Positions 1,413 to 63,771 of a stretch of DNA of 64,000 nucleotides are shown one piece after another. Location of the stretch: assembly GCF_046105845.1 (NCBI RefSeq), contig NZ_CP151004.1; one strand, written 5' to 3'. Position 1 is the first letter of the stretch, and each line of letters opens with the position of its first letter. The notes beneath the pieces were generated by a model, which ran no database searches, was not told where the DNA came from, and saw nothing but the letters and a program-made list of their open reading frames with translations. The DNA comes from Escherichia coli (lineage in GTDB: Bacteria; Pseudomonadota; Gammaproteobacteria; Enterobacterales; Enterobacteriaceae). The position numbers and the translations under genes were made by a program.

Positions 1413-1533
1413 CTCTGCCTTCCTGTTTTTGTTGTGAAAGAATGACAAAGTAACGCAATTTATTATTCGCTAAAACCGCAAAAGCCAGTCCGCTGGACTG
1501 GCTTTGGATAAAATTTTCTTAATGGTCTGAAAT

Positions 1534-1695
1534 CTAGGGTCGTTTTCGGCCCATGAACAAACTCACCAGGAACAGAATAATCCCGACGACAAAGACAATT
1601 TTAGCTGCGCCTGCAGCGGTACCGGCCAGACCACCAAACCCAAGTGCGGCGGCGATTAACGCGATAACCAGAAATATGATGCCCCAACGAAACAT
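1534..1695 (-). CDS. ytjA: small membrane protein YtjA (DUF1328/UPF0391)
   Basis: ORF 1534-1725; internal start [22 protein letters not shown] gives the 53-aa two-helix protein. Confidence 0.85.
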
Positions 1696-1821
1696 AAGCG
1701 TCTCCTTTACCATAGTTAATGTCACCGCTTGATATGAGCGTGAAAATCACTCAATGCGATATTTTTAGTGTGGTGCACATCGCGCCTCCCGACAAAGTTC
1801 GGGAGGACGAATTACGACGAA

Positions 1822-2427
1822 TTACTTAGTTTTCAGATCATTTTTAACGCTTTTCACACCATCTACCGCTTTGGCGATACTTTCAGCACGGTCGCTCTGT
1901 ACCTGGGAATCGACGGTACCGGAGAGCTGAACCACGCCGTCGGTGGTTTCAACTTTCACATGACGGGAAGGGACGATATCGTCCGCCAGCAGTTTGGCTT
2001 TGATTTCACTGGTGGTGGCGGTGTCACCCGCGTAGCCCTTCACAGAGCCTTCTTTAGCGTCGCGAACGTGCAGTTTGTCGCTGACAGAGGTCACGCCTTC
2101 AACGCCTTTGGCCACTTTCACTGCCTCTTCGGCCTGGGCCTGGCTTTCAACGAAACCGCTCAGGGTCACGACTTTTTGATCGGTTTTGACAGAGATATCG
2201 GTGCTCTTGATGTTGTCATGATCCACCAGGGCCGCCTTCACTTTCGCGGTGATGGCGCTGTCATCCATGAAATTACCGACTTTATTCATAGAGCTATCGA
2301 CTTTTTGCCCTGCGCTTTCATTGGTAGTCTGCGCGTTGTTTTCCGCGTAGGCAGAGCCGGTCGCGACGGCAGAGGTCAACATTACAGCCAGCAGAGTTTT
2401 CGAAATCTTCAGTCTTGTCATAGTCAT
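1822..2427 (-). CDS. osmY: osmotically inducible periplasmic protein OsmY (two BON domains)
   Basis: ORF 1822-2505; start [28 protein letters not shown] is a signal peptide, followed by the OsmY sequence (201 aa). Confidence 0.92.
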
Positions 2428-2783
2428 CGATTTATTCCTGTATGTTTGCTCGTAATTTGAGCCTGGCAACACGAGGTTGCATTGCTGAATAGGGAGAGAC
2501 TTCACCCTCTACAGAAGTCAATGGTCGCCATCACAAAAGCGATGGGTGATGAATAACGACCATTACAGCCTCTGAATCAGTTATTAATATCGGTAGAATG
2601 ACAATCGACGGCTTTAGATACTGATATCTACGCATTGAACGATATTTAACGCCGTCAGAAATGTCATTACTTTGTTAAATATAGATCACAATTTTGAAAC
2701 CGCTCGGGATATCAGCTAAAACATAAGCAAAAGTGAATGTTTTAAGAACATTCCGTAAGCGGCTAATAAGGAAGGGAAATTGA

Positions 2784-2809
2784 CAGGGCGCAGCGGCTAC
2801 CGCGCCCTG
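2784..2809 (-). terminator. GC-rich hairpin immediately downstream of prfC
   Basis: Inverted repeat cagggcgc...gcgccctg with T/C-rich tract on the minus strand after the stem. Confidence 0.45.
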
Positions 2810-2819
2810 GAGGCAAGAA

Positions 2820-4406
2820 TTAATGCTCGCGGGTCTGGTGGAACTGAACGTCCGGATAACGTTCCTGCGCCAGGCGCAGGTTTACCATGCTGGTAGCGAT
2901 GTAAGCGAGGTTATCGCCGCCATCAAGCGCCAGTTGGCTTTCGTTCTTACGCTTGAACTCTTCGAATTTCTTCGCGTCCGCACATTCTACCCAGCGGGCA
3001 GTGGCAACGTTGACTGACTCATACACTGCTTCAACGTTGTATTCGCTCTTCAGGCGCGCTACCACCACATCAAACTGCAGCACACCAACCGCGCCAACGA
3101 TCAGATCGTTGTTGGAGATCGGACGGAACACCTGCACCGCGCCCTCTTCGGAAAGCTGTACCAGCCCTTTAAGCAGCTGTTTTTGCTTCAGCGGATCTTT
3201 CAGGCGGATACGACGGAACAGTTCTGGCGCGAAGTTCGGAATACCGGTGAACTTCATCATCTCACCCTGGGTAAAGGTGTCGCCGATCTGAATGGTGCCG
3301 TGGTTGTGCAGACCAAGGATATCGCCAGGATATGCTTCTTCAACGTGCGAACGGTCACCCGCCATAAAGGTCAGCGCGTCGGAGATCACCACATCTTTCG
3401 CAGTACGCACCTGGCGCAGCTTCATGCCTTTTTCATATTTACCGGACACCACACGCATAAACGCCACGCGGTCGCGGTGTTTCGGGTCCATGTTGGCCTG
3501 AATTTTAAATACGAAGCCGGTAAATTTGTCTTCGCTCGCCTCTACGGTACGGGTATCAGTCTGACGCGGCATCGGCGCAGGGGCCCACTCCACCAGGCCA
3601 TCCAGCATATGATCGACGCCGAAGTTACCCAGCGCAGTACCAAAGAATACCGGGGTGATTTCGCCCGCAAGGAACAATTCTTTGTCGAACTCGTTAGACG
3701 CGCCTTTCACCAGCTCCAGTTCATCACGCAGCTGCTGCGCCAGATCTTCACCAACCGCAGCGTCGAGATCCGGGTTATTCAGCCCTTTAACAATGCGGAC
3801 TTCCTGAATGGTGTGGCCTTTACCACTCTGATAAAGATAGGTTTCATCTTTATAAAGGTGATAAACGCCTTTAAACAGCTTGCCGCAGCCAATCGGCCAG
3901 GTGATCGGTGCACAGCCGATTTTCAGCTCGTTCTCAACTTCATCGAGCAGCTCCATCGGGTCGCGGATATCACGGTCAAGTTTGTTCATAAAGGTGAGGA
4001 TCGGCGTGTCGCGCAGACGGGTAACTTCCATCAGCTTACGGGTACGATCTTCAACACCTTTTGCGGCGTCGATAACCATCAGGCAGCAGTCCACCGCCGT
4101 CAGGGTACGATAGGTATCTTCCGAGAAGTCTTCGTGCCCCGGGGTGTCGAGCAGGTTAACCAGGCAATCGTGATACGGAAACTGCATCACAGACGTGGTA
4201 ATGGAGATCCCACGCTGCTTTTCCATCTCCATCCAGTCCGACTTAGCGTGCTGGTTGGAACCACGGCCTTTTACTGTACCGGCGGTCTGAATGGCCTGTC
4301 CGAACAGCAGCACCTTCTCGGTGATGGTAGTCTTACCGGCGTCCGGGTGAGAAATAATTGCAAAGGTTCTTCTTTTCGCTACCTCTGCGGCCAAAAGGCT
4401 TGTCAT
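2820..4406 (-). CDS. prfC: peptide chain release factor 3 (translational GTPase)
   Basis: ORF 2820-4433; AHAGKTT G1 motif ([10 protein letters not shown]), DTPGH, NKLD; probable start [13 protein letters not shown] at 4406. Confidence 0.93.
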
Positions 4407-4566
4407 AATTGTTGTCTCTTTGATTATGTACAATCATATGTACAAAGAAAAATTCATGCCGCTGATTGTACATTTTGGAGGTATCAGAGCATAGCAGAAC
4501 ATGATCAGTAGGTGTATTTGTAGCCAAAGAACATTTGTACATGCAGCAATCTTTGTTCTATTGACA

Positions 4567-4582
4567 CTGTTTATTCATACAG
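4567..4582 (+). promoter_or_regulatory. LexA box (CTGT-N8-ACAG) upstream of dinI-like gene
   Basis: ctgtttattcatacag read directly. Confidence 0.6.
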
Positions 4583-4594
4583 TTAAAAATAACA

Positions 4595-4610
4595 CTGTAT
4601 ACAAACACAG
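4595..4610 (+). promoter_or_regulatory. second LexA box (CTGT-N8-ACAG), ends 16 nt before the dinI-like ATG
   Basis: ctgtatacaaacacag read directly. Confidence 0.6.
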
Positions 4611-4625
4611 TGTAGAGGGATTTTT

Positions 4626-4874
4626 ATGCGTATTGAGATCTGCATAGCCAAAGAGAAAATGACTAAAATGCCAAACGGTGCTGTGGATGCGTTAAAGGAA
4701 GAATTAACTCGACGCATCAGTAAGCGTTATGACGATGTAGAGGTGATCGTAAAAGCCACCAGCAACGATGGCCTTTCTGTTACGCGCACCGCCGATAAAG
4801 ATTCAGCTAAAACTTTTGTTCAGGAAACTCTGAAAGATACCTGGGAGTCTGCTGACGAGTGGTTTGTTCACTAA
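4626..4874 (+). CDS. DinI-family protein, likely a prophage-end moron
   Basis: MRIEICIAK...[11 protein letters not shown] resembles DinI (MRIEV...TWESADDWF); two LexA boxes upstream. Confidence 0.8.
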
Positions 4875-5482
4875 TTAACACGTAAAATCGGTAACGGCTG
4901 GAAATCATTCAATACTCGCACTATCGGAAGTTCACCAGCCAACCGCAGCACGTTCTTGCATACGACGTGTCTGCGGTTTTTCAACCATTCAGATACAGCA
5001 CTCTCATAACATTCATTCTTCCGCATTAAAGTATATATGACCATATCACCTTAATATTTTTCTTCTTCAGATAAAAATTGTTATCTATGTATACTTTTAA
5101 ACCGAATCCGTGTAGAGTCTCTACCTAAGTTAGTTCGCAGCTCCCCCTTCAGTTTGCGCCATTAACCTCCTGACTTTTGCCGCTATCTGTAAGCATTCCT
5201 GTATACCTGAAACTACAGGGTTCATCTACGAACTTTAAGAACACCCAGGATAAAAATTGTCAACTATATTATATATAACACCATACTAATTCGAGGCTAT
5301 ATGAACAGCATACTGATAATCACTTCACTACTTATCATATTCAGCATTTTTGGTCATGCTCTAATAAAATTAGGGATTGGCATATCCAATAACCCGGACA
5401 AAACAGATGTATAAGTCAACATATCCTGAATCAGACATACAATATTGCAATGAAAACCAATAATATTTTAAGGAATATCTTC

Positions 5483-5716
5483 ATGAAATCAAAAGACACC
5501 CTAAAGTGGTTCCCTGCGCAGCTTCCTGAAGTCAGAATTATCCTGGGAGATGCTGTCGTGGAAGTAGCAAAACAGGGAAGACCTATCAATACCAGAACAT
5601 TGCTTGATTACATTGAAGGAAACATAAAGAAAAAGTCATGGCTGGATAACAAAGAATTATTACAAACAGCGATATCAGTTCTTAAAGACAACCAAAATTT
5701 AAATGGTAAAGTGTAA
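5483..5716 (+). CDS. YdfK/YnaE-like cold-shock-induced prophage protein
   Basis: MKSKDTLKWFPAQLPEVRIILGDAVVEVAKQG matches remembered Qin/Rac YdfK/YnaE; sits beside the pin gene as in Rac/Qin; AT-rich leader. Confidence 0.55.
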   Translation: MKSKDTLKWFPAQLPEVRIILGDAVVEVAKQGRPINTRTLLDYIEGNIKKKSWLDNKELLQTAISVLKDNQNLNGKV

Positions 5717-6095
5717 TACCCCCCCTGAAAAATAATTTTTCAATGCATTAAAAAAATATCAACAACTACGTTATTCCGCAACAACCTACTTTTTTTACCA
5801 TTTTTCCACTTTAACAACATTTTGCTCCACTTTTCCACGACCAAACAACTTAAAATCTGGTTGAAATAACATACAACACTATTATTCGTCTTCCTCGAGT
5901 CCGCCCGGAGTTCGAAAAACAAACCGAGTTAAAGCCATTTTTCAAAAAATCGATTTTTGGTTACACCAAAATTACGGGACTGCATCCGAATTCGTTTATT
6001 TTCGAACGTATACATACAAATATGTACAATAATAAGCGAAATAATTTTTGGATATGCATTATGATATGTACACCAATTTCGTATAGAGTCTCACT

Positions 6096-6686
6096 ATGTC
6101 TCGAATTTTTGCTTACTGTCGGATATCAACGCTGGATCAGACCACCGAAAATCAACGCCGGGAAATCGAAAGTGCAGGTTTTAAAATCAAACCTCAGCAA
6201 ATAATCGAAGAACACATTAGCGGCTCAGCAGCAACCAGTGAGCGTCCTGGTTTTAACCGGTTGCTTGCTCGCCTGAAATGTGGTGATCAATTGATTGTGA
6301 CAAAACTGGATCGCCTTGGTTGTAATGCAATGGATATCAGGAAAACAGTGGAACAACTGACCGAAACAGGTATCAGAGTGCATTGCTTAGCATTGGGGGG
6401 CATTGACCTGACCAGTCCAACAGGAAAAATGATGATGCAAGTAATTTCAGCAGTCGCTGAATTTGAACGAGACCTTTTACTTGAACGCACTCATTCCGGG
6501 ATAGTAAGAGCCCGGGGCGCAGGGAAACGTTTTGGTCGACCACCTGTGTTAAATGAAGAACAGAAACAGGTGGTATTCGAACGGATTAAGTCAGGTGTAA
6601 GTATAAGTGCCATTGCCCGGGAATTCAAAACCTCGCGGCAAACCATTTTAAGAGCCAAAGCAAAACTTCAGACACCTGACATATAA
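6096..6686 (+). CDS. serine recombinase of the PinR/PinQ type
   Basis: 196 aa, [15 protein letters not shown] catalytic-serine N-terminus and C-terminal HTH; adjacent to tfa/stf as in Rac/Qin. Confidence 0.8.
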
Positions 6687-11442: not shown

Positions 11443-15203
<3,761 letters not shown>

Positions 15204-18322: not shown

Positions 18323-18408
18323 AACTGTCTCCGCACAGCCCCGTTCAGGGGCTGATTTCAGGTACAAAAAAAGCCCTTACGGGCCATCAGAGTTGTTGTC
18401 TGCGACGT

Positions 18409-20367
18409 TTACGCCGTACATTTCACCAGGCCGCGGTGATCAACTGGCGCAACACCAGCGTCAATACGTACTTTCGTTGTCACGCCATCCACACTGAAGC
18501 CCTCCATCTGATCAATATATGGCGTATCCACACCGTTGAGATAAGCCACTTCAATCGTATCGGAGCCTTTGGACGCAGCCAGGTAGAAGGTGGTCTGGCT
18601 GTTATCATCAAGACGAGGCTCTGCAATAACGGTCGCAAAATCTTTCACCGGGTTAATAATACCGGCGTTAATGTCAGCCCCCTTGACACTTGAGGAGCGA
18701 ATGACCTGGTTAGCAACAGACTCCATCGCCGTCGGTACCAGTACGAACGCAGGACGAATATTCAGATGACGCTCACCCTCTTTCTGAACGCGCATCAACT
18801 GGCGGGCTTTATCCAGCGATGCCACGTCCATTGCCGCGCTCTCCAGTACGTTTGCATGTTTCGCTTTATCGAACAGACTTACATTATCTGTGGAGATTTT
18901 CGGGTTAGACGTCAGAATGGCATAAACCAGATCGGCAATAGTGGATTTCGCCGCACGGCCCAGCTTCATCGGGACATCGGTCAGCATATTCAGATCATCA
19001 TTGATAATGGCCTGACGGGTGATACTGAACAGCTCGCCATAGGTCGCCAGTGCAATAGTGGCCTGTTTATCTCCGGTGGTGACGTATTTATATTCTGCCC
19101 CTTCACGCACCTGACGCAGAGCACTGAAGCCCCCCATACCCACACGATGGGCAATTTTAAAATCAGACAACTGACCTTTCCGCGTCCACTGTTCATAGGT
19201 TTCAGGGGCATCTTCCCAGCCCTGCAGAATGGCTTTGTTCGCAACATCCAGCAGAATATTACCGAAGTCAGACGTACTGTGTGTGAACGCCGCACCGACC
19301 ATCTGCATCGGGTTATAACTGGAAACACCAATACCACGTTCAGTCAGTGACATACGGGCATATTCACGCAGGGTCATCCCGTTGTAGACATTATCACGTT
19401 CGGTTTTTTCAAACCCGGCGCGCGCCATCAGCGCCTGGCGGATCCCGTCCCCCACAAAATTACCGTTACCGGCATAAATATGAGCCGGGGTATTTTTATT
19501 GGATGGCGTGGACTCGCGCCCCATCTCGTTCAACAGCTTTTCGCGGGCCTGCTCCAGCGAACATTCAGGATCGGCAAGACACTGAGCCTGCAGCGACTGA
19601 TAACGCCCACCAAACATGGCAAACAGATCATTAATACCGTTTACACGCGCTTTTTGCTCTGCCAGGACCTGCGCACGGATGCTGTTTTCATCCACCACGG
19701 GTGCTGCTGCCTGCACTGGCGTCCGGGAGGCTGCAGGTCCATCATCCTGTACGCGTGGAGCACTGTTGCGTGGCGGAGTAATCATATTTCGAATGGATTC
19801 CGGCATCTTTTTAAATTCCTCTGTACGTTTTGACTGAATACATGCCATTGCCTTAATGGCTGGTGTCACCTGATCAGCAAATCCCTGTGCCAGACATTCG
19901 GCACCGGACATCCAGGTCTCATCCGCCAGCATGGCAGCAATTTCATCGGTGGTTTTCCCGGTTTTCTGTGCATAAGCGGGTAACAGAACCGCCTCAACTT
20001 TATCGAGCAGGTCGGCATAGGTGCGCATGTCCTCCGCATCACCGCCCGTAAAGCCAAATGGTTTATGAATCATCATGAAGGAGTTTTCCGGCATAATGAC
20101 CGGGTTTCCCACCATCGCAATGACCGACGCCATTGACGCCGCCACACCGTCGACATAAACGGTAATGGACGCACCATGTGTTTTCAGTGCATTAAAAATG
20201 GCGATGCCTTCAAAGACATCGCCACCCGGTGAATTAATATGGAGATTAATGTGGGTGATATCGCCCAGTGCATTCAGATCACTGATAAACTGCTTCGCCG
20301 TAACACCCCAGAAACCAATCTCGTCATAAATATAAATATCCGCGTCACTCTGGTGACCTGCCTGCAT
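18409..20367 (-). CDS. prohead protease (ClpP-like) fused to major capsid protein
   Basis: ORF 18409-20628; N-terminal ClpP-like domain (INSPGG, GVAASMAS) then capsid domain; start assumed at ATG 20367 just after the portal stop. Confidence 0.7.
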   Translation of the reverse strand: MQAGHQSDADIYIYDEIGFWGVTAKQFISDLNALGDITHINLHINSPGGDVFEGIAIFNALKTHGASITVYVDGVAASMASVIAMVGNPVIMPENSFMMIHKPFGFTGGDAEDMRTYADLLDKVEAVLLPAYAQKTGKTTDEIAAMLADETWMSGAECLAQGFADQVTPAIKAMACIQSKRTEEFKKMPESIRNMITPPRNSAPRVQDDGPAASRTPVQAAAPVVDENSIRAQVLAEQKARVNGINDLFAMFGGRYQSLQAQCLADPECSLEQAREKLLNEMGRESTPSNKNTPAHIYAGNGNFVGDGIRQALMARAGFEKTERDNVYNGMTLREYARMSLTERGIGVSSYNPMQMVGAAFTHSTSDFGNILLDVANKAILQGWEDAPETYEQWTRKGQLSDFKIAHRVGMGGFSALRQVREGAEYKYVTTGDKQATIALATYGELFSITRQAIINDDLNMLTDVPMKLGRAAKSTIADLVYAILTSNPKISTDNVSLFDKAKHANVLESAAMDVASLDKARQLMRVQKEGERHLNIRPAFVLVPTAMESVANQVIRSSSVKGADINAGIINPVKDFATVIAEPRLDDNSQTTFYLAASKGSDTIEVAYLNGVDTPYIDQMEGFSVDGVTTKVRIDAGVAPVDHRGLVKCTA

Positions 20368-20380
20368 CCTGAACCAGGAA

Positions 20381-21889
20381 TTATTCTTCGGACTGGTCGT
20401 CGGTGTGCTGCGGCTCCTGTCGTTTCGTTGCGGCACTGCTGCCTCCTTTATCACTGGCCGGATCGGTATCAAATACCAGATCCAGCTTGCGGTTTTCATC
20501 AATTTCGGCCTTGCGCCGACGTTTGACATCATCCGGATTACGACCACCTGCACGTACCCAGTCTGATTCTGTCGCCGCTCCACCACGAATCTGAATTTTC
20601 CAGGCCTCAGCCTCCTTAACAGGGTCAATCCACGGCATCACCGGTCCGGAATACACCGCGGTATACAGTGAAGAACGATCAAGATCGCGGGGTAGCCTGA
20701 TAACACCGGATGCCACAGCCTGTTTCAGCCAGGCACGATACATCGGGCGGGTGACGGCACCAATAAACCAGTCCTGCAGGATCAGGTAGCCATCAGTGGA
20801 TTCAACCAGCTCCTGACGCTGGGCGCTGTAAGTGCCGTTATAGTTGCGCGCTGTACTGGAAAAACTCAGACGACTGCCCGCCGCCACGGCACGCAACTGA
20901 CCATTACGAAAAGTTTCAAGATTAGGATTGGGGCGATCCGACTTCACCATTCCGATTTCTTCGCCGGGTTTCAGATCGTCGTAAATAATGCCTGGCTGAA
21001 TGGTAAGCTCGCGTTCCTTATCCTTGCTGCCATTACCATCCGGTTCATAGCTCTGCCCGTCGCCTTTCCGGATGTACATCCCCAGAGCAGCGGCGATCCT
21101 TGCTGCAGTCAGCTCAGAATCTTCATACTCTTTCAGGGCACTGAGGCGGATCAGCACACCGGACAACAAAGACGTCCCGCGCATCTGGTGCAGACGGCGA
21201 ACAAATTTAAGATGCAGCATTCGCTCTGCATCCACTTCTTTGGTTTCCATCTGCCGTCCGGATACGGGACGGCTTTTATACACCAGATATTTTTCGGGAC
21301 GCCCCCAGTCATCAACAAACACGCCCTGATTCAGCCTGTTGCTCTCATCACTGGTCATGGGAATAAAGTCCGGCTCGAGCGCCTCCAGCCAGAAATGAAC
21401 ACCGGCAGAAGGCGTCAGGCTGTTTATGCGCCCGGAAACCATCTGGGCAAACACCTCACCATCGCGCAGCCAGGTACGCAACATCAGACGTTCCAGCATC
21501 GGACGGGTAAACTGCCCGGTGACTTCCGGACTGACAGACCATTCACTCCATCGGGTGCGTATCTCCGCTGCCAGATCACGGGCAATGGCCCCATTGCGTA
21601 ATACCGGATGTGGCTCGACAATAATCCCGTTTTTCCCCACCACCCGTTCTTCCAGCTTGTCAAATACACCAATGACCAGATCGTGGTTGTTATCAAGGTA
21701 ACGGGCCTGCTCACGTAACGACACGGCCCCGTACTGGCTTAACTGGTCGGCAGTTCGGTTTTCCCGCCGGGCTTTGTGTGTCCGCGTCGTTTTTACGGCC
21801 TCATAAGCCTGGATCACCGCACGGGAACGCAGCCTTGCCGCTTTCCATCCTGGTGAAAAAACGCCAATCACATCATCAAGAATTGCCAT
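20381..21889 (-). CDS. portal protein (lambda B family)
   Basis: ORF 20381-21961, ~500 aa, between W-like gene and protease-capsid gene; start MAILDDVIG overlaps the W stop. Confidence 0.8.
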   Translation of the reverse strand: MAILDDVIGVFSPGWKAARLRSRAVIQAYEAVKTTRTHKARRENRTADQLSQYGAVSLREQARYLDNNHDLVIGVFDKLEERVVGKNGIIVEPHPVLRNGAIARDLAAEIRTRWSEWSVSPEVTGQFTRPMLERLMLRTWLRDGEVFAQMVSGRINSLTPSAGVHFWLEALEPDFIPMTSDESNRLNQGVFVDDWGRPEKYLVYKSRPVSGRQMETKEVDAERMLHLKFVRRLHQMRGTSLLSGVLIRLSALKEYEDSELTAARIAAALGMYIRKGDGQSYEPDGNGSKDKERELTIQPGIIYDDLKPGEEIGMVKSDRPNPNLETFRNGQLRAVAAGSRLSFSSTARNYNGTYSAQRQELVESTDGYLILQDWFIGAVTRPMYRAWLKQAVASGVIRLPRDLDRSSLYTAVYSGPVMPWIDPVKEAEAWKIQIRGGAATESDWVRAGGRNPDDVKRRRKAEIDENRKLDLVFDTDPASDKGGSSAATKRQEPQHTDDQSEE

Positions 21890-26084: not shown

Positions 26085-27185
26085 TCATTCCATTTCGAAA
26101 TCATCAATCCTCACTTCAAGCTCCAAACTGGTCGTAAAACCGTTATCCGGGCTGACGGTATGCGTCAGAGTCGTAATGGTCCATTCCGCATCATCTATCG
26201 GCTGTTTAAAACCACTGACCTTCACAGGCATTTCCGTGTAGAGATCTGCCCGCCCTTCTGCCAGTTGTAGCGAAAATGACGCAACGCCGCGTTGCAGGCG
26301 TTCCCACTGCATTTTCGCCGCTCGTTCGGCGTTGCTTCGGTTGGCATAAGTGCGATTAAGTACCAGCACGTTTTCATCCGTACCCACCAGGTAATCGCCC
26401 TGCTTCGCTTCTGGCTCTTTCTTCTGCTTCTTAGTTCTGCGCTTACGCTTCACCGTGGTGCTTTCTTTCTTCGCAGGTTCGCGGGTATGCAACCAGCTGG
26501 CAATTACGCCCGTGTAGGCTCCGCGATCTGCCAGGGTAAATCGGTGACTGTCGCCGTCCTTGCGTGTGATAGTGATCACTGGCAGAGGTTTACCAGTGGC
26601 GCTTTTGCCCTGCCCCTGCCGGATGAATAACAGATTGCCATTTTTCACCGACGCGATGGCACCGTACTGTCGCGCCAGCCGCATCAGAAAACTGCCGTCA
26701 CTCTCATTAGTCTGGTCTATATGCTCCACGGGCTTATCCGACAGGTCTTTACCCAGTGCCATCTTCAGCTTGTGCCGCGCGGCTATTTCCTTCACCACTT
26801 CCCCGACGGTGGTCTTATGCCACGATTTTTCACGGCGGGTATTCAGCGTTTCCCGAAAATCAGCACTTCGCGCCCGGATAGTCAGGCGGTCCGGTGCGCC
26901 AGTGTGTTCAATCTCGTCCACTGTGAATGCCCCTTTCGGGAAAAGCGGCTGCCCCTTCCAGCCCAGCGCCAGCGTAATAACCGCACCACGGCGCGGCAGC
27001 ACGATTTTTCCGTCAGCGTCATCCAGCTCCAGATCAAGCTGGTCCGCTTCAAAGCCCCGGTTATCCGTCAGCGTCAAACTCATCAGGCGGTTATCCAGCA
27101 CAGTGGTGATATCCCTGCCCTCAATACTGATGCTGAATGCGGGAGTTTTGTTGCCTTTGTTAAGCAGTTCAGAGCTGAAATTCAC
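26085..27185 (-). CDS. D: P2 gpD-like tail protein
   Basis: 366 aa, P2-like gene order D-U-T. Confidence 0.85.
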   Translation of the reverse strand: MNFSSELLNKGNKTPAFSISIEGRDITTVLDNRLMSLTLTDNRGFEADQLDLELDDADGKIVLPRRGAVITLALGWKGQPLFPKGAFTVDEIEHTGAPDRLTIRARSADFRETLNTRREKSWHKTTVGEVVKEIAARHKLKMALGKDLSDKPVEHIDQTNESDGSFLMRLARQYGAIASVKNGNLLFIRQGQGKSATGKPLPVITITRKDGDSHRFTLADRGAYTGVIASWLHTREPAKKESTTVKRKRRTKKQKKEPEAKQGDYLVGTDENVLVLNRTYANRSNAERAAKMQWERLQRGVASFSLQLAEGRADLYTEMPVKVSGFKQPIDDAEWTITTLTHTVSPDNGFTTSLELEVRIDDFEME

Positions 27186-27667
27186 GACAGCAGCCCTCCC
27201 ACCGTTTTACTGATATCGCTTAAGGCAGACGTTGCCGTGTCCTGCAGATTATTCAGTTGCGCACTGAGATCACCGAACATATCGGACAGGGATTCATCCA
27301 CTCGTTTGAGCGACAGGGTGAACTCAATCCGGCGCGGCATACCGTCGCGGAAAAACTCCGTTTTAGTCTGATTCAGTCCCTCAATCACATACATGCCGTA
27401 AATCGTGCCGCTGCCTTCAATCAGGGGCCATGCTTTCCCCTGTTCTGCCATCTGCTCCAGTGCCAGCAACGACAGCCTGCCGCCTGTTATCTCCGGCATA
27501 AGAACACCGGAAAGCGTCAGCATGTCGTTGTCCGGTCCCAGAAACTGCGTGGACGGACGACGATTTACCCGGCTGTTAGCCACATGTCGCCAGCTGCGCT
27601 GATACTGCAGTTCCTGATACGGCACGGTGCGCAGCATAAACACGTACAATCCCAGCACCATCATCAT
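27182..27667 (-). CDS. U: P2 gpU-like tail protein
   Basis: MMMVLGLYVFMLRTVPYQE matches remembered P2 gpU start. Confidence 0.85.
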   Translation of the reverse strand: MMMVLGLYVFMLRTVPYQELQYQRSWRHVANSRVNRRPSTQFLGPDNDMLTLSGVLMPEITGGRLSLLALEQMAEQGKAWPLIEGSGTIYGMYVIEGLNQTKTEFFRDGMPRRIEFTLSLKRVDESLSDMFGDLSAQLNNLQDTATSALSDISKTVGGLLS

Positions 27668-30600
27668 GCGTCGTATCCCCCCTGATCGCTGTAGTTACTC
27701 CTGGCTTTTGCCTTCAGCCTGCGTTCACGTTCATCAAGCTGGCGGGCCACCTCCCGCGCAATATCCTGCGCACTTTGTCCTGGCTGTGTCTGGATGATGA
27801 TCTGCGTCGGTGCTTCAATCCGTTGAACGGGCGGCACAGTGGCTGCACGACTCACCATCGCTTCACCGCCTTTCGCGGGAAGTGCCAAAGGGTGCAACGG
27901 TGGAAGCTCTGCTGGCGTAGCAGCAACACCCATCATTCCGGCAACAACGGCAGCCAGTGCAGCTGTATTTCTCCGGCTGGTCACATTTGCCGGGCCGTTA
28001 ACAATTTCCGGCCCGTTTTCACCGACGATGCCAAACTGCCCGCGCGGGATATACCCGCCGCTGTCATACATCCCCGCAAAGCCATATCCCCATGACGGAA
28101 AACCACCCGATGGCATCATCACTTTACCGTCTGCATTCACCGTCGCAGGTTGCTGACGCGTCACGCTTTCCGGCAGTTTCGCCTTTGCGGCCTCTTTACT
28201 GACAATGCCAAGTTTCTCCAGCAACCAGGAAACGCCGGATTTCAGCGAGTCCAGCGGATGCATGACCATATTCAGCCCTTCCGCCAGAGCCTCCCCGAAT
28301 CGTCGCCCCATTGCCGCTGCACTCTGCAGTTCGGCAGAGGTCGACTTAACGGGCGTCAGCAGATCAGTAAACCAGCCCCACAGCGCCTGTACTTTGTCGC
28401 CAATCCACTGGAACACAGGCTTAAGCGGTTCGAACGCGGCACTGACAGGACCTGCCGCCGCTTTGAATCCTTCCACCACGCCACCGAGAAATGCGGTGAT
28501 GGGCTGCCAGTATTTCCAGACAACCAGCGCCACACCCGCCAGTGCAGTAACCACAAGACCTATCGGACTGAGCAGAGCACCTAACAGACCAGAGACGGCA
28601 TACAGGGCAACGCGCAGCATCGCCAGTGGACCGGATGCGAGCATACGCAGCACCGTGCCTGTGGCAGCCAGTCCGCCGCGTAGTACCGCCAGTGGATTCA
28701 TAAACATCACAGCAACCGCACGTAAACCGGATAATCCAGACCGCAAAAGTGCAACCGGCGCACCTGCTACAGTTTTCAGGATATTTCCCGTCAGTAATGC
28801 CGTGCGGCGCAAAGACGACAACGGCGCAGTAAGTAAACCTGCAGCGTTGCCCGATGAAGCAAGCCCGCGTCGCAGCAGTGCCAGTGGTGCGCCAGCCAGC
28901 CAGGACAACGCGTTGCTGGTTCGGGTTACTGCTGCCGTAACGGAAGGTAACGTTTTGATACCCAGCACAGAGAATCCCAGACGGATGACTGCCAGCGGCC
29001 CCAGCACTGCAGCCAGCGCCACCGCTAAGGTGCCGAGGCCCACGGTAACGGCAGCTACCACAGCGGCTACTTTCATCAGAGTGCCCGTCAGTTCCGGGTT
29101 AGCTTCCACCCAGCGACGCAACGCCCCCGTGACGCTTTTCACCGTGTACAGAATATCCATCAGCGGCTGGCGCAGCGTTTCCCCCAGGCTGCTGAAGGTG
29201 TTCTGTGCTCCGGTTTTGACCAGCAACCACTGAGCAGAAAGTGAATCCTTGTTGATGTCGGATTCTTTCTGCATGGAACCGAGCGCATCATTGCCCGCTG
29301 TCAGTTTTAACTGGCGCTGAAGTTCCGGCAGGTTGTTTGCCAGTTTCGCTGCGTCATCGCCAAACTCTTTACCAAACAACATGGTCATGGCAGACAGGCG
29401 CTTATCCTGTGGCAGCGCATTCACCTTCTCCAGCACGCGCTGGATAGTTCCCATCGCATCCTTCGTCATCTGCTTTTCAATCACTTCTGGATTGAGTTTC
29501 AGCAGATTCATCCCTTCAAAGAAACTCTTGCTTTGCATGGTGGCAATGGACAATTCACGCACCATCGCGTTTGCTGCACTGGCTGCAACCTCAGGCGCAG
29601 CGCCGAGTGTCAGGAAGGTGGAACCCAGCGCCGCCGCTTTACGATAATCCAGACGGTCAGCCACACCGCCCAGGCGTTGCATGACATCAATGATGTCCGC
29701 CCCTTTCGACATGGCGTTATCATCCAGATAGTTCAGCGCATCACCGAGCTGCTCAATATTGCGGGTAGGGATTTTGTAGAGCTGGGCGATTTTCCCCAGA
29801 CTTTCTGACAGTTCATCCGCTGGCAGTTCAAAGGCTGTTGCCGCCTTTGCCGCCGTGCTGGCGAAGGCCAGCAGGTCACGTTTCTGATCTTCCCAGCTGT
29901 CGTCAGGGTTTGCGACGTTCATGCGCGCACCACCTTCAACCAGTGCAGCGAAGTCCACCGCACCGTTTTCCATCGGCAACTGTTCGCTGGCAGCCTTGAT
30001 GGCATCCTGCATTTCATAAAAACGTGCAGTGCGGTTGCCATTATCGTCACGCAGACCATTGACCTGCTTTGCCACACCTTTCATGGCATCTTCCATGCTG
30101 GTATAGCTTTTTACTGCCGCCATCACTGGCGCACCCATTGCCAGCCCTGCAGCCGTGGTGGTAGCTCCGGCACCTGCAATACGATCACGCACCTCCAGCG
30201 AACGGGCATAACTGGCACGCGCTGCATTCATCCTGCGCTGAGCTTCCCCCAGTCGCTTCAGCCGCGCCTCCTGTTTCGAAAGTTCCTGGTTATAACGTGA
30301 TGTTTCACGGGCTAAACGGGCAGTTGCTCCCGCATCGTCTTTCGCAGAAATTCCCGCCCGGTACAGTTCAGCACGCACAAGCGCCGTCTGCTGCTGCAGC
30401 TTTTTCTGGCGTTCTTCTAGGCGCTGAACAGCCAGCCGTTGACGGCCCAGAGCAACAACCTGACGTTGCGAAGGCGGCCCCATCGCTCCCAGTTCCTGAC
30501 TGAGCAAATTTGCACGCTGGCGGGCATAGTTCAGCCTGTCGCCTAATTTCTGATTTTCTGCCTGCAGCTTTCGGAAGCTGTCCAGACTGCTCCCGGCCTG

Positions 30601-30741
30601 ATCAAGCTGCTTTATTGCATCGCGGGATTTTTTGACAGCAGCAGCCAGTTCTCTTGAACTGGCCTGCGCAGATCGAAATGGGCGGGTGAGCTTGTCAACC
30701 GCATTAAGAATGACCTGCAGACGCAGGTTGTTATCACTCAT
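27664..30741 (-). CDS. T: tail tape-measure protein (P2 gpT-like)
   Basis: 1025 aa, coiled-coil N-terminus, hydrophobic central block. Confidence 0.85.
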   Translation of the reverse strand: MSDNNLRLQVILNAVDKLTRPFRSAQASSRELAAAVKKSRDAIKQLDQAGSSLDSFRKLQAENQKLGDRLNYARQRANLLSQELGAMGPPSQRQVVALGRQRLAVQRLEERQKKLQQQTALVRAELYRAGISAKDDAGATARLARETSRYNQELSKQEARLKRLGEAQRRMNAARASYARSLEVRDRIAGAGATTTAAGLAMGAPVMAAVKSYTSMEDAMKGVAKQVNGLRDDNGNRTARFYEMQDAIKAASEQLPMENGAVDFAALVEGGARMNVANPDDSWEDQKRDLLAFASTAAKAATAFELPADELSESLGKIAQLYKIPTRNIEQLGDALNYLDDNAMSKGADIIDVMQRLGGVADRLDYRKAAALGSTFLTLGAAPEVAASAANAMVRELSIATMQSKSFFEGMNLLKLNPEVIEKQMTKDAMGTIQRVLEKVNALPQDKRLSAMTMLFGKEFGDDAAKLANNLPELQRQLKLTAGNDALGSMQKESDINKDSLSAQWLLVKTGAQNTFSSLGETLRQPLMDILYTVKSVTGALRRWVEANPELTGTLMKVAAVVAAVTVGLGTLAVALAAVLGPLAVIRLGFSVLGIKTLPSVTAAVTRTSNALSWLAGAPLALLRRGLASSGNAAGLLTAPLSSLRRTALLTGNILKTVAGAPVALLRSGLSGLRAVAVMFMNPLAVLRGGLAATGTVLRMLASGPLAMLRVALYAVSGLLGALLSPIGLVVTALAGVALVVWKYWQPITAFLGGVVEGFKAAAGPVSAAFEPLKPVFQWIGDKVQALWGWFTDLLTPVKSTSAELQSAAAMGRRFGEALAEGLNMVMHPLDSLKSGVSWLLEKLGIVSKEAAKAKLPESVTRQQPATVNADGKVMMPSGGFPSWGYGFAGMYDSGGYIPRGQFGIVGENGPEIVNGPANVTSRRNTAALAAVVAGMMGVAATPAELPPLHPLALPAKGGEAMVSRAATVPPVQRIEAPTQIIIQTQPGQSAQDIAREVARQLDERERRLKAKARSNYSDQGGYDA

Positions 30742-31749: not shown

Positions 31750-32922
31750 TTACGCGCTGACCTGGCTGGCGAAATTCACCAGGTACTGATCGGTGATGCG
31801 CTGACGCAGCATCAGGTTTTCAAGTGGCGGCACTGGCGTGTAGTCGTAGTCGATGGTGAGTTTTCCGGCTTTCAGCGTGTCTTTGTCGTTCACCGACTCA
31901 TCCAGCCAGCAATCACCACCAATGAGATAGCCCTGACAGACCAGGCTGCGCATTTTGGCGCGGATACCTTCGATAATGTCGCGGGCCAGCGACGGGTTAA
32001 GCGGTTTATCCACCGCCCACATGTGTGCTTCTGCCATCGTGTCCATCAGCACCTGCGCCGTGCGGGTGTAGTTTTCGAAGGCAAAGAGCGGGTCATCACT
32101 CAGGCAGCGGGAACCCCAGAAGCGGAAACCGTCTTTACGCACAAGCGTGGTGACGTCGTTCTGGTTCAGCAGACCTGCATCGGTTGCCGGGTCCTGCAGA
32201 TCCCAGAACACATCTGCAGAAATTCCGGTGACACCGTTCACGCCCACGTTGGACAGGCTTTTGTGCCATCCGGTCTGCTCGTCAATTTTGGCGCGCAGAC
32301 CAAGCGCACGGGCGGTGGCATATGCCGTTGCTTCGGCATTCAGCACCGTGTCCCAGCCAGTAAAGTCAGGCCAGATCAGCATCCCTTCGCGCTGGCTGAA
32401 GTTTTCGCGGTAAGTGATCGCCTCCTGCACTGTCTTGCAGCCATACGCTGACAGGTAAGCAAATCCACGCAGGCTTTGCGCCACGCTCAGCAACTCAGTC
32501 GCAACGGCTTTGTTATCGTGACCTGGCACGCCGAGAATGCGCGGTTTAACGCCGAGCTGTGTCTGGGCAGATAACAGGGCTTTCATGCCTGTTTTTTTAC
32601 CTTCAGCAGTCACTGCGCCGATGATATTGGTCGTGGTTTCTTCTTCCGTTTCACCCTGCGGCACACGCACAACAACGGTCACGGGTTTTGCCTGGTCAGA
32701 GATGGCATCCAGCGAACGGGCCAACGTGCCGGACTCACCCGCTTTACCGCTGGCAGTCAGCACATCAGTGATCAGCACGGGTTTATTAAGAGGAAACATT
32801 TTTGCATCGGCATCATCGCCCGTGCAGACCATGCCCACGATGGCGGTGCTCACCGTGGTAATGGATCGGGTACCTTCGTTGACTTCAACAACGCGCACCC
32901 CGTGGTGGTAATCCTGAGCCAT
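31750..32922 (-). CDS. FI: tail sheath protein (P2 FI-like)
   Basis: 390 aa, [13 protein letters not shown] start. Confidence 0.85.
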
Positions 32923-47862: not shown

Positions 47863-49287
47863 TTACTTACGTGTTTCAACTATATTCAGCCCCTTATAAA
47901 GGCTTTGATGGATATATACAGAACCAGTATTTGGCAACATTAAATCAGCATCTTCACATCGGAATCTAGCCGTACCGGAATTGCCCAACCGGACACCAAT
48001 CACAGAAGCATTAAATAGAGTTTTCATCAATTCACGAGAAGTATAGCGCTTACAAAGGTCAGGCGCTTTCTCTTCAATCTTACTGATGAATTCTTCTGTA
48101 GAATTATATCTATGCTGCGTCTGACGTAAAGATTCCAATAGCTCACCAAAATGAGGGTAGAGCCTTTTGTATTCTTGTTTTAAGTCCTCAACTTTCCAAG
48201 CGCTGTACCGTTCTTCAGCTATTCTAATTATATCCTTTTTTATTTCAGAAGCATTAGCATCACAGCGTTTTTGGCATTCTTGCAAAAACTGAATAACTTC
48301 TCTTGGGCGCAAAAATGTGCGCTTCACCAAATAGTTAAACGGTGAAATACTCCCTCTCATTTCACCTTCCTCAAAAATATCATCTATAGTTATATTTTCC
48401 GGCAATCTGGCGTTCACCATATCTTTCAACAACTCTGGTGTCCAGATTATTTCTTCTTCAATTGCTCGGTGTTTATCTTTATCATCAAATTCCAGCCCTT
48501 GATAAATATCAGAGCGTAAAAATGTTACAATATGAATACCTTTGGCTCTAGTATCAGAATAACTATCATTAATATCTTTTGTTGCCTTCAACAAGCCAAT
48601 CAAAAGGCTTTTGGCATCATCCGATCCATCCCAAGAATCATCTAATCGATCAGTGGCAATTAGCACCCCAATATCTGTACAAATTTCTTTAAGCTCGTCA
48701 AGGATGATTTTTATTATTTGAGGTGTCAATGGTGCTTGCGAAGCATCCTTATTAAACCCCACAGCATATCCGAAAGCCTCAAAATTGAATGAACTTAATC
48801 CCGAGAGTAACTTCCTTGCAGTTCCCAAAGTAGTTGGCGATATACCACCATAGTTATCAGAAACAAATTTTTTAATTCTAGCAAGGGCCTCCCGAGGTCT
48901 TTTCTCTGAAAATTGCCTACCTGACCTAATAATTTCTGCCGCAGCCTCAACAGCTATTGCAAATTTCCAAGCATTACAATGTGCCTGTTCGGGTAACAAC
49001 CCTTGCTCTTGATATTGTTTTAATGCTCCCCAAGCATACTGGTCTGGGGTCATGACATTTACGATAACGTCCTGCCCATATTTTGCTCTTACCAACCTTG
49101 GGAGTTGGGTAAAGATGGATGATTTCCCAGCCCCCTTTCTTCCAAGAAAATGGGCACTATAGAAACTCAGAGCTTGCTCAACTTGAGGAGTATTGATGAA
49201 ATAATCAGCCAACCTTCTATCAGCTTCAGCATCGACAGTACCAAAGTTGAGTCCCTTAACTGTAAGGCCTAACGCATCTAACCGCAC
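47863..49287 (-). CDS. P-loop NTPase of unknown family; accessory cargo between portal gene and cos
   Basis: 474 aa, GTG start with AAGGA RBS; Walker A GRKGAGKSS; possible Walker B LIATDRLDD; AT-rich by eye. Confidence 0.6.
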   Translation of the reverse strand: MRLDALGLTVKGLNFGTVDAEADRRLADYFINTPQVEQALSFYSAHFLGRKGAGKSSIFTQLPRLVRAKYGQDVIVNVMTPDQYAWGALKQYQEQGLLPEQAHCNAWKFAIAVEAAAEIIRSGRQFSEKRPREALARIKKFVSDNYGGISPTTLGTARKLLSGLSSFNFEAFGYAVGFNKDASQAPLTPQIIKIILDELKEICTDIGVLIATDRLDDSWDGSDDAKSLLIGLLKATKDINDSYSDTRAKGIHIVTFLRSDIYQGLEFDDKDKHRAIEEEIIWTPELLKDMVNARLPENITIDDIFEEGEMRGSISPFNYLVKRTFLRPREVIQFLQECQKRCDANASEIKKDIIRIAEERYSAWKVEDLKQEYKRLYPHFGELLESLRQTQHRYNSTEEFISKIEEKAPDLCKRYTSRELMKTLFNASVIGVRLGNSGTARFRCEDADLMLPNTGSVYIHQSLYKGLNIVETRK

Positions 49288-49372
49288 GATAATTCCTTAA
49301 TTGGTAAACTAAATTTGAACTTGATGCCAACAAAGATAATATCAATTTAATTAAAAAGAAAGCTGTTGCGCG

Positions 49373-49393
49373 CGCTCGTATCCCCGCCACGCC
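49373..49393 (-). other. P2/186-type cos site
   Basis: Reverse strand reads GGCGTGGCGGGGATACGAGCG, cf. remembered P2 cohesive end GGCGAGGCGGGGAAAGCAC. Confidence 0.55.
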
Positions 49394-49772
49394 TGCCCGC
49401 TTTATGCAGTGGTTTTCATGCACATGCATGACATGAGCAAAAGCCCGCCAGTTCTGGCGGATCTGAGCAAAGACGATCCTCAATCGATCATGCGATTTCA
49501 TGCAGCATAGTCATGCACTGTCAAAGAAGTAAAAATCCGTATCTGAATGGCCACTTGAAAAACGGATCATACGGGTTTACAAAGATGAATGTTCGCTGTG
49601 AACGGGAAGCGGAAGTTAACTTTCAGATAACATAATCCATATGCACGAGAACCTCTAAAATAGAATGGGACACCTAAGCGGGGTACTTACAACGATTCTT
49701 TCCATATTCACAGTTAACACTCTGTTTGGCGTATTTTTATTCAAATAGCAAACACCAATAAAAGGAGTTTCC

Positions 49773-50108
49773 ATGAACAATATTCCCCCTATACCACAGT
49801 TAGGAATTTATGTCTCAAAAATCGATCCCACCCTACGTATCACTGTAACCGATGTTGATATTGTTGATGGTGAGGATGATTCTCCTGATGATGAATTGTT
49901 TTATTTAGTCCACTGGATCGAGGGGGAAGATGAAAGTGATATGACAGCAATGGGATTTGAGCTAGACCCAGTAGAGTGGCAGGCTTTCGTTGAATCTGAG
50001 CAATTAGTGTTTGAGCGTGATCCGTACATGGATTCAATCCCCGAAAATTCAAACTTGGCAAAGATTCGGGATTTTCTCATGAAGACTAAACAGAATGATC
50101 ATTCGTAA
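49773..50108 (+). CDS. hypothetical acidic protein
   Basis: 111 aa, D/E-rich, no motif recognised. Confidence 0.4.
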   Translation: MNNIPPIPQLGIYVSKIDPTLRITVTDVDIVDGEDDSPDDELFYLVHWIEGEDESDMTAMGFELDPVEWQAFVESEQLVFERDPYMDSIPENSNLAKIRDFLMKTKQNDHS

Positions 50109-55955: not shown

Positions 55956-56080
55956 GATGCAACATTCCTCGTTTAATGTTGATTAATCAGGACGAATACG
56001 GATCGTTTGTATTTTGTGAACATCATAAACATACGATCGCATAATGAAATCGTCAAGACAAAAGTTCACTTGGAGTGACC
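55956..56080. promoter_or_regulatory. immunity switch region between apl-like gene and cI
   Basis: Intergenic; imperfect inverted repeat gatcgtttgtat...atacgatc (56001-56039). Confidence 0.4.
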
Positions 56081-56650: not shown

Positions 56651-56700
56651 TATAGGAATGTTTTTATGCTTGGTAAAGCATTTGTTGTGGTGTAAAAAAT

Positions 56701-57624: not shown

Positions 57625-57649
57625 GTAAATTTTTCATGGAGACTTCATA

Positions 57650-59167: not shown

Positions 59168-59229
59168 AAGCATTGTTTGAATAAACTAAACCATACATTG
59201 ACCACTGGTCAAACATACAGTTAAATTTA

Positions 59230-59248
59230 GCCCTCTGATATGAGGGCT
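59230..59248 (+). terminator. hairpin plus T-tract after the KAP gene, abutting the int start
   Basis: gccctc-tgatatg-agggct then TTTATT, then ATG of int. Confidence 0.55.
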
Positions 59249-59253
59249 TTATT

Positions 59254-60306: not shown

Positions 60307-60442
60307 TAACCACCACTGACCACCAACCCAACTTATTGTTTTTACTCTAAGTTATTGTTTTCATTAACCCGTTTACATAAATGGGTAATTTGTATTGTTG
60401 AATAGCATCTGATGAGAAATTGATGCTAATATTATAAACATA

Positions 60443-63767: not shown

Positions 63768-63771
63768 TGGA

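Follow-up and report, generated by a model that had tools for sequence, protein, structure and literature searches.

Genes that unite three head-assembly functions have been described in small actinobacteriophages (clusters EE, AN, AX, CW, and others) and in archaeal proviruses (PMC7302621, PMC6563490). These fusions carry proteases of other families (S78; chymotrypsin-like in the archaeal cases), are unrelated in sequence to the gene studied here, and arose independently of it. A closer relative is gp5 of Pseudomonas phage MD8: Evseev et al. (2021, PMC8508860) present it as a single gene that combines the protease, scaffold, and capsid functions, and by HHpred they relate its product to the C protease and scaffolding domain of lambda and to the Mu capsid protein. 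A paper on CBASS escape deals with protease–scaffold fusions, not capsid fusions, and is not relevant here.

The gene described below belongs to the family NF045540 (scaf_prot_MCP1, [quoted passage not shown]), whose members include mEp460 gp05 and the homologs in cdtI, Ayreon, and Stx phages; the records disagree solely about where the gene starts. Its DNA is 99.3% identical to that of mEp460, and its product is 57% identical to MD8 gp5 over 97% of its length, MD8 having another host and a longer linker. Our searches of the literature found no experimental data on products of the NF045540 family, and no virion proteomics or N-terminal sequences for mEp460, cdtI, Ayreon, or related phages.

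The window, that is, the whole stretch of Escherichia coli DNA analyzed (64,000 nucleotides), contains this gene on the minus strand. A first-pass annotation had read one long ORF as a ClpP-like prohead protease fused to the major capsid protein, with no separate scaffold gene between portal and capsid, and both statements are borne out. Pfam finds the two domains in the same, stop-free frame (CLP_protease, ORF residues 95–255, E 3.5e-36; Phage_capsid_4, ORF residues 441–736, E 9e-55). Because the portal gene lies directly upstream and a cement-protein gene directly downstream, a separate scaffold or capsid gene is absent. The features of the locus are as follows:

20381–21889, minus strand: portal gene (CDS), with its TAA stop codon at 20381–20383
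18409–20628, minus strand: intact ORF as delimited mechanically, TTG to stop, 739 aa; the initial 64 codons merely lack stops where the ORF overlaps the portal gene and do not code for the fusion protein
20442–20449, minus strand: putative Shine–Dalgarno (SD) sequence AAAGGAGG, 5 nt upstream of GTG 20436 and within the portal coding sequence
18409–20436, minus strand: proposed CDS of the protease–scaffold–capsid polyprotein (675 aa, 73.4 kDa), from the GTG start through the stop codon
20381–20436, minus strand: overlap of 56 nt, the 3′ end of portal and the beginning of the fusion gene
20365–20367, minus strand: ATG put forward as the start in the first-pass annotation and in the mEp460 record, read here as internal Met24
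18362–18385, minus strand: terminator-like hairpin and T-run directly past the fusion-gene stop codon
17999–18322, minus strand: gene for a capsid cement/decoration protein (Phage_cement_2, formerly DUF2190; Pfam E 2.7e-20), the next gene

The gene order of terminase, gpW-like protein, lambda-type portal, fusion gene, and cement protein is common to the window and the NF045540 loci, and the cement-protein neighbor was found in nearly all fetched loci. The mEp460 record has a rho-independent terminator annotated at the equivalent place after the fusion gene. The protein matches NF045540 with 982.9 bits against a cut-off of 475 (profile positions 2–651 of 652) and NF045542 (ClpP-related head-maturation protease) with 216.9 bits against 120; phrog_133 and phrog_4523 (“major head and protease protein”) match as well. 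The fusion gene is thus an ordinary, already catalogued prophage gene, and its initial reading was correct but not new.

Public records give at least four different starts for the NF045540 gene, corresponding to 652, 659, 675, or 706 aa, and the first-pass annotation had likewise left the start ambiguous between ATG 20367 and an upstream codon overlapping the portal gene. It is the upstream option that stands: judged from ribosome-binding potential and conservation, the predicted start is GTG 20436, which lies 56 nt within the portal gene and yields a protein of 675 aa. The duplex between AAAGGAGG and the 3′ end of 16S rRNA, at −11.6 kcal/mol, is the strongest among all in-frame start candidates. 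This SD sequence is unchanged and at a fixed position in seven lineages in which the spacer and flanks vary, and the start codon is invariant across the same number of lineages except for one swap of GTG to ATG. Gene calls at loci from Salmonella, Kosakonia, Citrobacter, and E. coli have the identical 56-nt overlap, and the PGAP coordinates in an identical RefSeq copy, which also uses the NF045540 name, match the 18409–20436 CDS. In the chain started at GTG, residues 2–23 open with PQRNDRSRSTPTTSPK, whereas a chain started at ATG 20367 would open MQAGHQSD. The still earlier codons ATG 20532, ATG 20529, and TTG 20628 were rejected: their SD sequences are weak, and in other lineages the frame closes 13 to 29 codons upstream of the GTG, so that the upstream extension is not conserved as an ORF. 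The choice of start, with its 56-nt overlap, bears on proteomics databases and expression constructs.

Initiation at ATG 20367, which would give 652 aa as in the mEp460 annotation, has some attractions, the codon being an ATG that avoids overlap with the portal gene, lying in frame 13 nt past the portal stop, where terminating ribosomes could reach it, and yielding a product whose length equals the 652 positions of the NF045540 profile. We nevertheless regard it as very improbable. No usable SD sequence precedes this ATG (−2.2 kcal/mol), and structure prediction places Met24 within strand 22–26, the first conserved β-strand of the protease domain. The residue aligned with Met24 is hydrophobic (Ile in 41 and Met in 14 of 87 homologs) and forms part of a conserved N-terminal motif, W-[YF]-x-[IM], ahead of which distant homologs start by two to five residues. 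The 13 nt preceding the ATG are conserved, and the only changes there are synonymous in the protease frame, as with the Arg codon just upstream, which varies between AGG, CGT, and CGC. A different doubt concerns the fusion as such, which might be an artefact or a pseudogene in which two genes, one for the protease and one for the capsid, became joined through a frameshift or the loss of a stop codon. The window's prophage copy does carry defects elsewhere, having lost the tail-tip genes in an IS-associated deletion and received a 34.7-kb insertion, and databases contain erroneous longer fusions, such as 1159-aa portal–protease–capsid records. Against this, fusion DNA that is 100% identical occurs in several complete E. 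coli chromosomes; similar DNA is present in 2134 of 5426 complete E. coli genomes (about 40%) and in phages mEp460, cdtI, and Ayreon, plaque-forming phages being among the carriers; and the architecture is kept in homologs down to 35% identity, with thousands fused over their full length at 35 to 60%. The stop or frameshift between protease and capsid that would have undone the original reading is absent, and the fusion ORF is uninterrupted in 1981 complete E. coli genomes at ≥80% coverage; the chance that the fusion is artefactual is negligible. A programmed frameshift joining portal to fusion gene was considered separately and rejected, because the junctions in the 1159-aa records are scattered over many places in the stop-free overlap, as random single-base indels predict; there is no slippery site.

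The 675-residue chain can be divided into the following parts, numbered from the GTG:

19852–20385, minus strand: ClpP-fold serine protease domain, residues ∼18–195
20134–20136, minus strand: codon of Ser101, aligned with the ClpP Ser
20065–20067, minus strand: codon of His124, aligned with the ClpP His
19804–19826, minus strand: candidate internal ribosome-binding site and ATG (GAGGA at 19817–19821; ATG at 19804–19806, Met211)
19690–19800, minus strand: disordered Pro/Ala-rich linker, residues 213–249
19516–19689, minus strand: three-helix scaffold-like module, residues 250–307
18412–19458, minus strand: HK97-fold major capsid domain, residues ∼327–675

Ser101 and His124 are invariant across 87 homologs, and the position of the ClpP Asp is occupied by Glu173 (Glu in 76 homologs, Asp in 7). 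The protease domain, as judged from profile matches, shares the ClpP fold but is not a ClpP orthologue, the cut-offs of the cellular ClpP equivalogs being missed by a wide margin (TIGR00493, 59.7 bits against 308.6; NF001368, 78.8 against 249). The score for SppA_dom (TIGR00706), 21.6 bits against 155, places it outside the S49 family. The capsid domain is related to the Mu gpT/Phage_capsid_4 group. The neighboring cement-protein gene suggests stabilization by decoration instead of Lys–Asn isopeptide cross-linking.

Between these domains, the linker is the least conserved and length-variable part of the alignment, with pLDDT <50 for residues 223–246. It is followed, with high confidence in the structure prediction, by helices 250–273, 280–288, and 294–307 (pLDDT ∼90–97), a flexible segment, and the HK97 fold. 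The helical module has the conserved pattern E..R...I...L...A...LL..LG. Pfam gave no significant match for the linker and scaffold segment. BLASTP of lambda C/Nu3 against the fusion protein produced a weak colinear alignment that includes the Nu3 motif (E 0.004); with Nu3 by itself as the query, the last 465 residues gave no significant match (E 0.44). The family phrog_3348 combines the protease and the three-helix module in an unfused form. We therefore call the module scaffold-like: it weakly resembles the C-terminal motif of lambda Nu3, and its role would be that of a scaffold, a view that the published analysis of MD8 gp5 shares.

The in-frame ATG in the linker (ATG 19806) suggests a second product, since initiation there would yield a nested, protease-free scaffold–capsid protein of 465 aa and 50.6 kDa. 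Our literature search did not find an internal start described for the NF045540 family. A linker Met is present in 83 of the 87 homologs. When homologs with DNA were clustered at 70% identity, an in-frame ATG between protease domain and scaffold module occurred in all 48 clusters, the best linker ATG was preceded by an SD-like sequence in all but one, and it had the strongest SD of the internal in-frame ATGs in 29, with about 4 to 5 expected by chance; at six distant loci, its SD ranked first (four loci) or second (two loci) among ∼40 internal candidates. The lineages are related by kinship, and these cluster and locus counts are not independent. MD8-like loci have CAGGAG-N9-ATG at the equivalent Met, and the available part of the MD8 paper does not mention an internal start. 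Within the clade of 52 to 99% identity, the ATG at residue 211 is invariant, with AGGA or GGAG 9 to 11 nt upstream. Codon −5 before Met211 is always GAG, AAG, CAG, or GGA in this clade, Glu being encoded by GAG in 33 of 33 cases and Lys by AAG in 4 of 4, whereas 59% of Glu codons gene-wide are GAA and position −2 has GAA 18 times and GAG twice. The predicted mRNA accessibility at ATG 19806 is 200 times the median of internal ATGs; across 16 lineages, accessibility of the internal ATG is uneven, above the median in 14 and at rank ≤3 in 7.

Other strong internal SD sequences precede Met at ORF residue 201 and Val at 713; these lie inside folded domains and have a 2-nt spacing or are not conserved. 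The stronger SD belongs to the 5′ site, and by itself it predicts no minority of the protease-bearing form. A conserved [ED][ED][FY]xxMP motif surrounds Met211 and could be a feature of the protein.

The alternative is that the 675-residue chain is the sole primary product, with every capsid subunit carrying a protease that is removed after assembly, and that the linker ATG, with the SD-like sequence before it, owes its presence to a protein motif or to chance and does not serve initiation. We take this to be a real possibility, somewhat short of even. It fits the modest SD-like energy in the window's lineage (−6.0 kcal/mol, with a long spacing of 10 to 11 nt) and the fact that, in the 70% cluster containing the window, 15% of the other internal in-frame ATGs match or exceed the SD of Met211 (p about 0.39 alone). 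F208 and P212 beside Met211 are conserved at the protein level family-wide, and the papers on the actinobacteriophage fusions and on MD8, in the parts available, mention one gene product only. A purely protein-level or chance origin is harder to square with relatives that lack Met at 211, in which an internal ATG with an SD reappears elsewhere in the linker, often with a canonical AAGGAG at 5 to 8 nt and the best SD of the gene. It also leaves aside the codon choice at position −5, which is fixed, so that AGGA is kept, and the nested solution established for lambda C/Nu3 (annotation; Shaw and Murialdo 1980, as cited in PMC8508860). For the NF045540 family at large, we consider an internal start likely, and in the window's own lineage it is just on the probable side. 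By a similarly slight preference, we read the fused genes as two nested genes created by the linker ATG, the ratio of initiation setting the number of proteases per prohead.

Taken together, the gene very probably encodes the head-assembly polyprotein of a lambdoid prophage of the mEp460/cdtI type, a reading that comprises the parts list, the assembly route, and the second start. Translation would begin at GTG 20436, which has its strong ribosome-binding site within the portal gene's 3′ end. The predicted chain runs from a short disordered leader through the ClpP-fold protease (Ser101/His124/Glu173), the proline-rich linker, and the Nu3-like three-helix module to the HK97-fold capsid domain. 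By analogy with HK97 and lambda, the capsid domains would assemble a shell on the portal with the scaffold and protease parts facing inward, and the protease would then trim the chain back to the capsid domain, removing all that precedes it. The mature capsid N-terminus is predicted to fall between residues ∼308 and ∼345, for a protein of about 36–40 kDa. The shell would presumably expand during DNA packaging and be stabilized by the cement protein from the next gene. Met211 probably supplies a 465-residue, protease-free scaffold–capsid subunit, and with this second start the protease would be present on only a fraction of subunits.

The fusion itself changes nothing, belonging to a curated family and being in print for a homolog. 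What is new, on our reading of the sequences, is the GTG start inside the portal gene and a probable second, internal start that is conserved. If true, the internal start would explain how some 400 proteases per head are avoided despite the fusion of protease to capsid, and would show, in a simple case from a very common type of prophage, how nested initiation can control stoichiometry.

Among known systems, HK97 gp5 also has an HK97-fold capsid domain preceded by an N-terminal helical extension (the delta domain) that serves as scaffold and is removed by the phage protease. The predicted model of the window protein resembles it in placing a helical extension before the capsid fold in the same chain. 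The HK97 protease, gp4, is encoded by a separate gene and belongs to the herpesvirus-like S78 family, not to the ClpP-like proteases. The likeness to lambda extends to the neighborhood, where A, W, and portal B are followed by a protease gene overlapping the end of the portal gene, to the succession of a protease of the ClpP/SppA fold group and a scaffold segment, and to the presence of a decoration/cement gene. The lambda protease is of the S49 type, whereas that of the window scores as ClpP-like, and the lambda capsid protein E is encoded by a separate gene of a different sequence family, with D between Nu3 and E. The lambda scaffold Nu3 is made from an in-frame internal start and begins at C residue 239, within the protease domain. 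The nested-start logic proposed here is that of lambda C/Nu3 and of herpesvirus UL26/UL26.5, a principle that, if the internal start is true, would be extended through the capsid protein itself.

A single stop-free frame carries both the protease and the capsid protein, as the first-pass annotation had claimed. The frame and its neighbors are as follows.

20381–20383: terminal TAA of the lambda-type portal gene, directly upstream of the fusion gene
18409–20628, minus strand: stop-free frame of 739 codons, from TTG 20628 to the stop at 18409–18411
next gene downstream of the fusion gene: capsid cement protein gene (Phage_cement_2)

Counted from TTG 20628, Pfam assigns ORF residues 95–255 to a Clp protease domain (E = 3.5e-36) and residues 441–736 to a Phage_capsid_4 domain (E = 9e-55), the latter stronger than a match to Mu gpT. 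The curated NCBIfam model for such fusion proteins, NF045540, is matched end to end with 983 bits (cut-off 475), and the NCBI pipeline gives the gene the name of this model. Because the portal gene lies directly upstream and the cement protein gene downstream, the portal and head-completion genes have no separate scaffold or capsid gene between them, which agrees with the first reading. Directly 3′ of the capsid gene, within the late operon, lies a terminator-like hairpin, GGCCC-GTAA-GGGCT followed by T7 (18362–18385, minus strand), annotated as a terminator in the mEp460 record; its role may be to stabilize the mRNA of the capsid gene, or antitermination may let transcription pass through it. 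In L095, the locus of a distant homolog on an ENA metagenome contig, the fusion gene (1501–3447) is preceded by small ORFs and an HTH_36 protein, not a portal, and followed by a cement protein and then a tape measure. Such a locus may belong to a reduced or satellite-like element with its own protease–capsid gene.

The fusion is already known and common. Several complete E. coli chromosomes carry it at 100% DNA identity, and of 5426 complete E. coli genomes 2134 have a match (1981 at a coverage of at least 80%). DNA identity is 99.3% with phage mEp460, about 98.6% with cdtI and Ayreon, and about 78% with Stx-phage homologs. Among 1.84 billion cluster representatives searched, 7102 reached E ≤ 1e-30; of the best 150, the majority are fused at full length, at roughly 620 to 740 residues; the PHROGs family is phrog_133, along with phrog_4523 (“major head and protease protein”). 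Since identical DNA occurs in complete chromosomes and full-length homologs are widespread, the fusion is the normal state. The frame is intact in the identical chromosomes and the 1981 genomes, with no frameshift or stop splitting protease from capsid, which confirms the fusion and supports the earlier interpretation.

Comparison with the intact prophage of E. coli Ec1119 shows that the prophage carrying the gene is damaged, the fusion gene itself being intact. The features concerned are listed here.

11691–12948: insertion sequence (flanks 12949 and 11690), with a transposase ORF at 11894–12940, plus strand
26085–27185, 27664–30741, and 31750–32922: P2-like myovirus tail genes (gpD, tape measure, and sheath) in the insert
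60381–64000: present position of the lysis/cold-shock region, essQ...gnsB

This lambdoid prophage is defective: where that of Ec1119 has a further 6.3 kb, it carries the insertion sequence (approximately 1.26 kb, rve-type transposase). Missing with those 6.3 kb are most of J, the tail-tip genes M, L, K, and I, and the C-terminal quarter of the tape-measure gene (an ORF of 772 residues, compared with about 1021). Approximately 34.7 kb (25698–60380) is inserted between the lysis/cold-shock region and the terminase genes, and 13 reference bases matched on both sides suggest a duplicated attachment or target core; the insert looks like one prophage integrated inside another. Low-GC stretches at 4001–6000, 48001–50000, and 56001–62000 (0.37–0.41, compared with about 0.53 elsewhere in the window) suggest separately acquired cargo, and a resolvase/invertase gene (6096–6686) adjoins the tail-fibre genes.

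Annotated lengths of the fusion protein conflict (652 residues in mEp460, 675 from PGAP, and 659, 674, or 706 in the ~78% lineage), and the first-pass annotation had left the start between ATG 20367 and a codon overlapping the portal gene. Four lines of evidence point to the overlapping GTG 20436. AAAGGAGG lies ahead of it across a 5-nt spacer, and the predicted Shine-Dalgarno (SD) duplex with the 16S 3′ end (−11.6 kcal/mol, versus −2.2 for ATG 20367) is the strongest of all 60 in-frame candidates. The SD and start codon keep their position in all seven lineages compared (Salmonella, Kosakonia, Citrobacter, and four from E. coli or its phages), whereas the spacer and flanking bases differ; GTG becomes ATG in one, and the 56-nt overlap with the portal gene is kept across the compared loci. 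The Arg codon of “SWFRM,” which lies between the portal stop and ATG 20367, varies among AGG, CGT, and CGC, changes that are synonymous in the protease frame and thus count for GTG 20436, as this stretch would otherwise be intergenic spacer. Homologs at 35 to 60% identity start with M-x(1-4)-K-x-W-[YF]-x-[IM]-x-A, matched in the alignment by KNNSWFRMQA, so that Met24 (ATG 20367) is predicted to be a hydrophobic position of the first strand rather than the start; of 87 sequences, 41 have Ile at this position and 14 have Met. ATG 20367 does sit 13 nt past the portal stop, as had been noted. A small invariant hairpin, TCCTG-GTT-CAGGA (20367–20379, minus strand), ends at its A; this is probably merely the SWFR coding sequence and would also disfavor initiation there. 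Starts above GTG 20436 are excluded because in other lineages the frame closes 13 to 29 codons upstream.

In the window the protease frame has no stop in the 64 codons above the GTG, within the portal gene (20436–20628, minus strand), so single-base indels anywhere in this overlap create 1159-residue portal–protease–capsid “triple fusions.” More than a dozen occur in public protein sets (database proteins P0003–P0017, P0043–44, and P0070–71), five sharing one junction (a G lost from GAGG). Their junctions are scattered, and they resemble pseudogenes or sequencing errors rather than products of programmed frameshifting.

The layout below, numbered from GTG 20436, comes from an AlphaFold model with 87 homologs as its basis (mean pLDDT 86.9).

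1–17: disordered leader
~18–195: ClpP-fold domain, opening with strand 22–26
~196–222: short helices around the conserved F208...P212 motif
223–246: proline-rich disordered linker
250–273, 280–288, and 294–307: three confident helices
308–326: flexible segment
~327–675: HK97-type fold with E-loop strands and a long spine helix (482–510)

In alignment, Ser101 (GVAASMA) occupies the position of the ClpP nucleophile and His124 (MIHKP) that of the base, and neither varies in any of the 87 sequences; Glu173, at the ClpP Asp position, is acidic in 83. The protein falls well short of the cut-offs for genuine ClpP; it shares the fold but is not a ClpP orthologue. Pfam gives no match for the three-helix module, which is conserved (E..R...I...L...A...LL..LG) and is also found attached to unfused proteases (phrog_3348). 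Lambda C aligns colinearly with residues 120–324 (E = 0.004), the module aligning weakly with the Nu3 C-terminal motif. Judged from alignment and model, the “missing” scaffold is this putative scaffold-like module.

The disordered linker contains a Met in 83 of 87 aligned sequences, typically after E-E or K-E and followed by an N-terminus-like MP..., MS..., or MT.... The corresponding site in the window is as follows.

19804–19806, minus strand: conserved ATG (Met211), a candidate internal start, with SD-like GAGGA at 19817–19821

In the DNA of six distant homologs, the linker ATG has the best SD pairing among about 40 internal candidates in four and the second best in two (for example, gagAAGGAGGgcgttATG, −12.2 kcal/mol). 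Two viral-contig scans brought the set to 168 loci in 48 clusters at 70% identity. The linker ATG is present in all 48, lacks any SD in only one, and has an SD that beats every other internal in-frame ATG in 29 (chance expectation roughly 4–5). In distant relatives 26 to 65 residues separate it from the end of the protease domain, and a canonical SD precedes it at 5 to 8 nt. A nested protease-free product is thus quite likely across the family.

The main rival reading has every subunit produced full-length, with no nested product. In the window's clade (52–99% identity, including the Pseudomonas MD8 group), the ATG is fixed at residue 211 within [EDKQG][ED][FY]xxMP, with AGGA or GGAG 9 to 11 nt upstream, and SD strength alone is weaker evidence (p about 0.39 for the window's cluster). 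Where codon −5 encodes Glu it is nevertheless always GAG (33 of 33), and where it encodes Lys always AAG (4 of 4), compared with 59% GAA for Glu gene-wide and 18 GAA versus 2 GAG at position −2 of the same sequences. In 14 of 16 lineages the site's predicted accessibility exceeds the median for internal ATGs, 200-fold in the window. For the window's lineage we lean toward the nested product, predicted at 465 residues (50.6 kDa) and comprising linker, scaffold module, and capsid domain.

As read from DNA and model, one frame encodes the protease, the capsid fold, and predicted helices of a scaffold-like kind; the ribosome site at its 5′ end is strong and conserved and overlaps the portal gene. 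By analogy with HK97 and lambda, capsid domains would assemble around the portal with their N-terminal parts inside, the protease would then remove these parts, and the shell would expand and bind the cement protein. Initiation at Met211 would supply protease-free subunits, the full-length chain serving as the vehicle by which the prohead receives proteases in limited number.

What is added here is the resolved start codon and a testable, conserved internal start that is apparently undescribed. Comparable fusions of independent origin are described in small actinobacteriophages (PMC7302621), in Rhodobacter phages, and in archaeal proviruses (PMC6563490). Pseudomonas phage MD8 gp5, 57% identical, is published with the same architecture, and the MD8 report cites Shaw & Murialdo 1980 for the nesting of lambda Nu3 in C. 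The proposed arrangement would do the same as lambda C/Nu3, in which Nu3 is annotated as an in-frame nested CDS from C residue 239.
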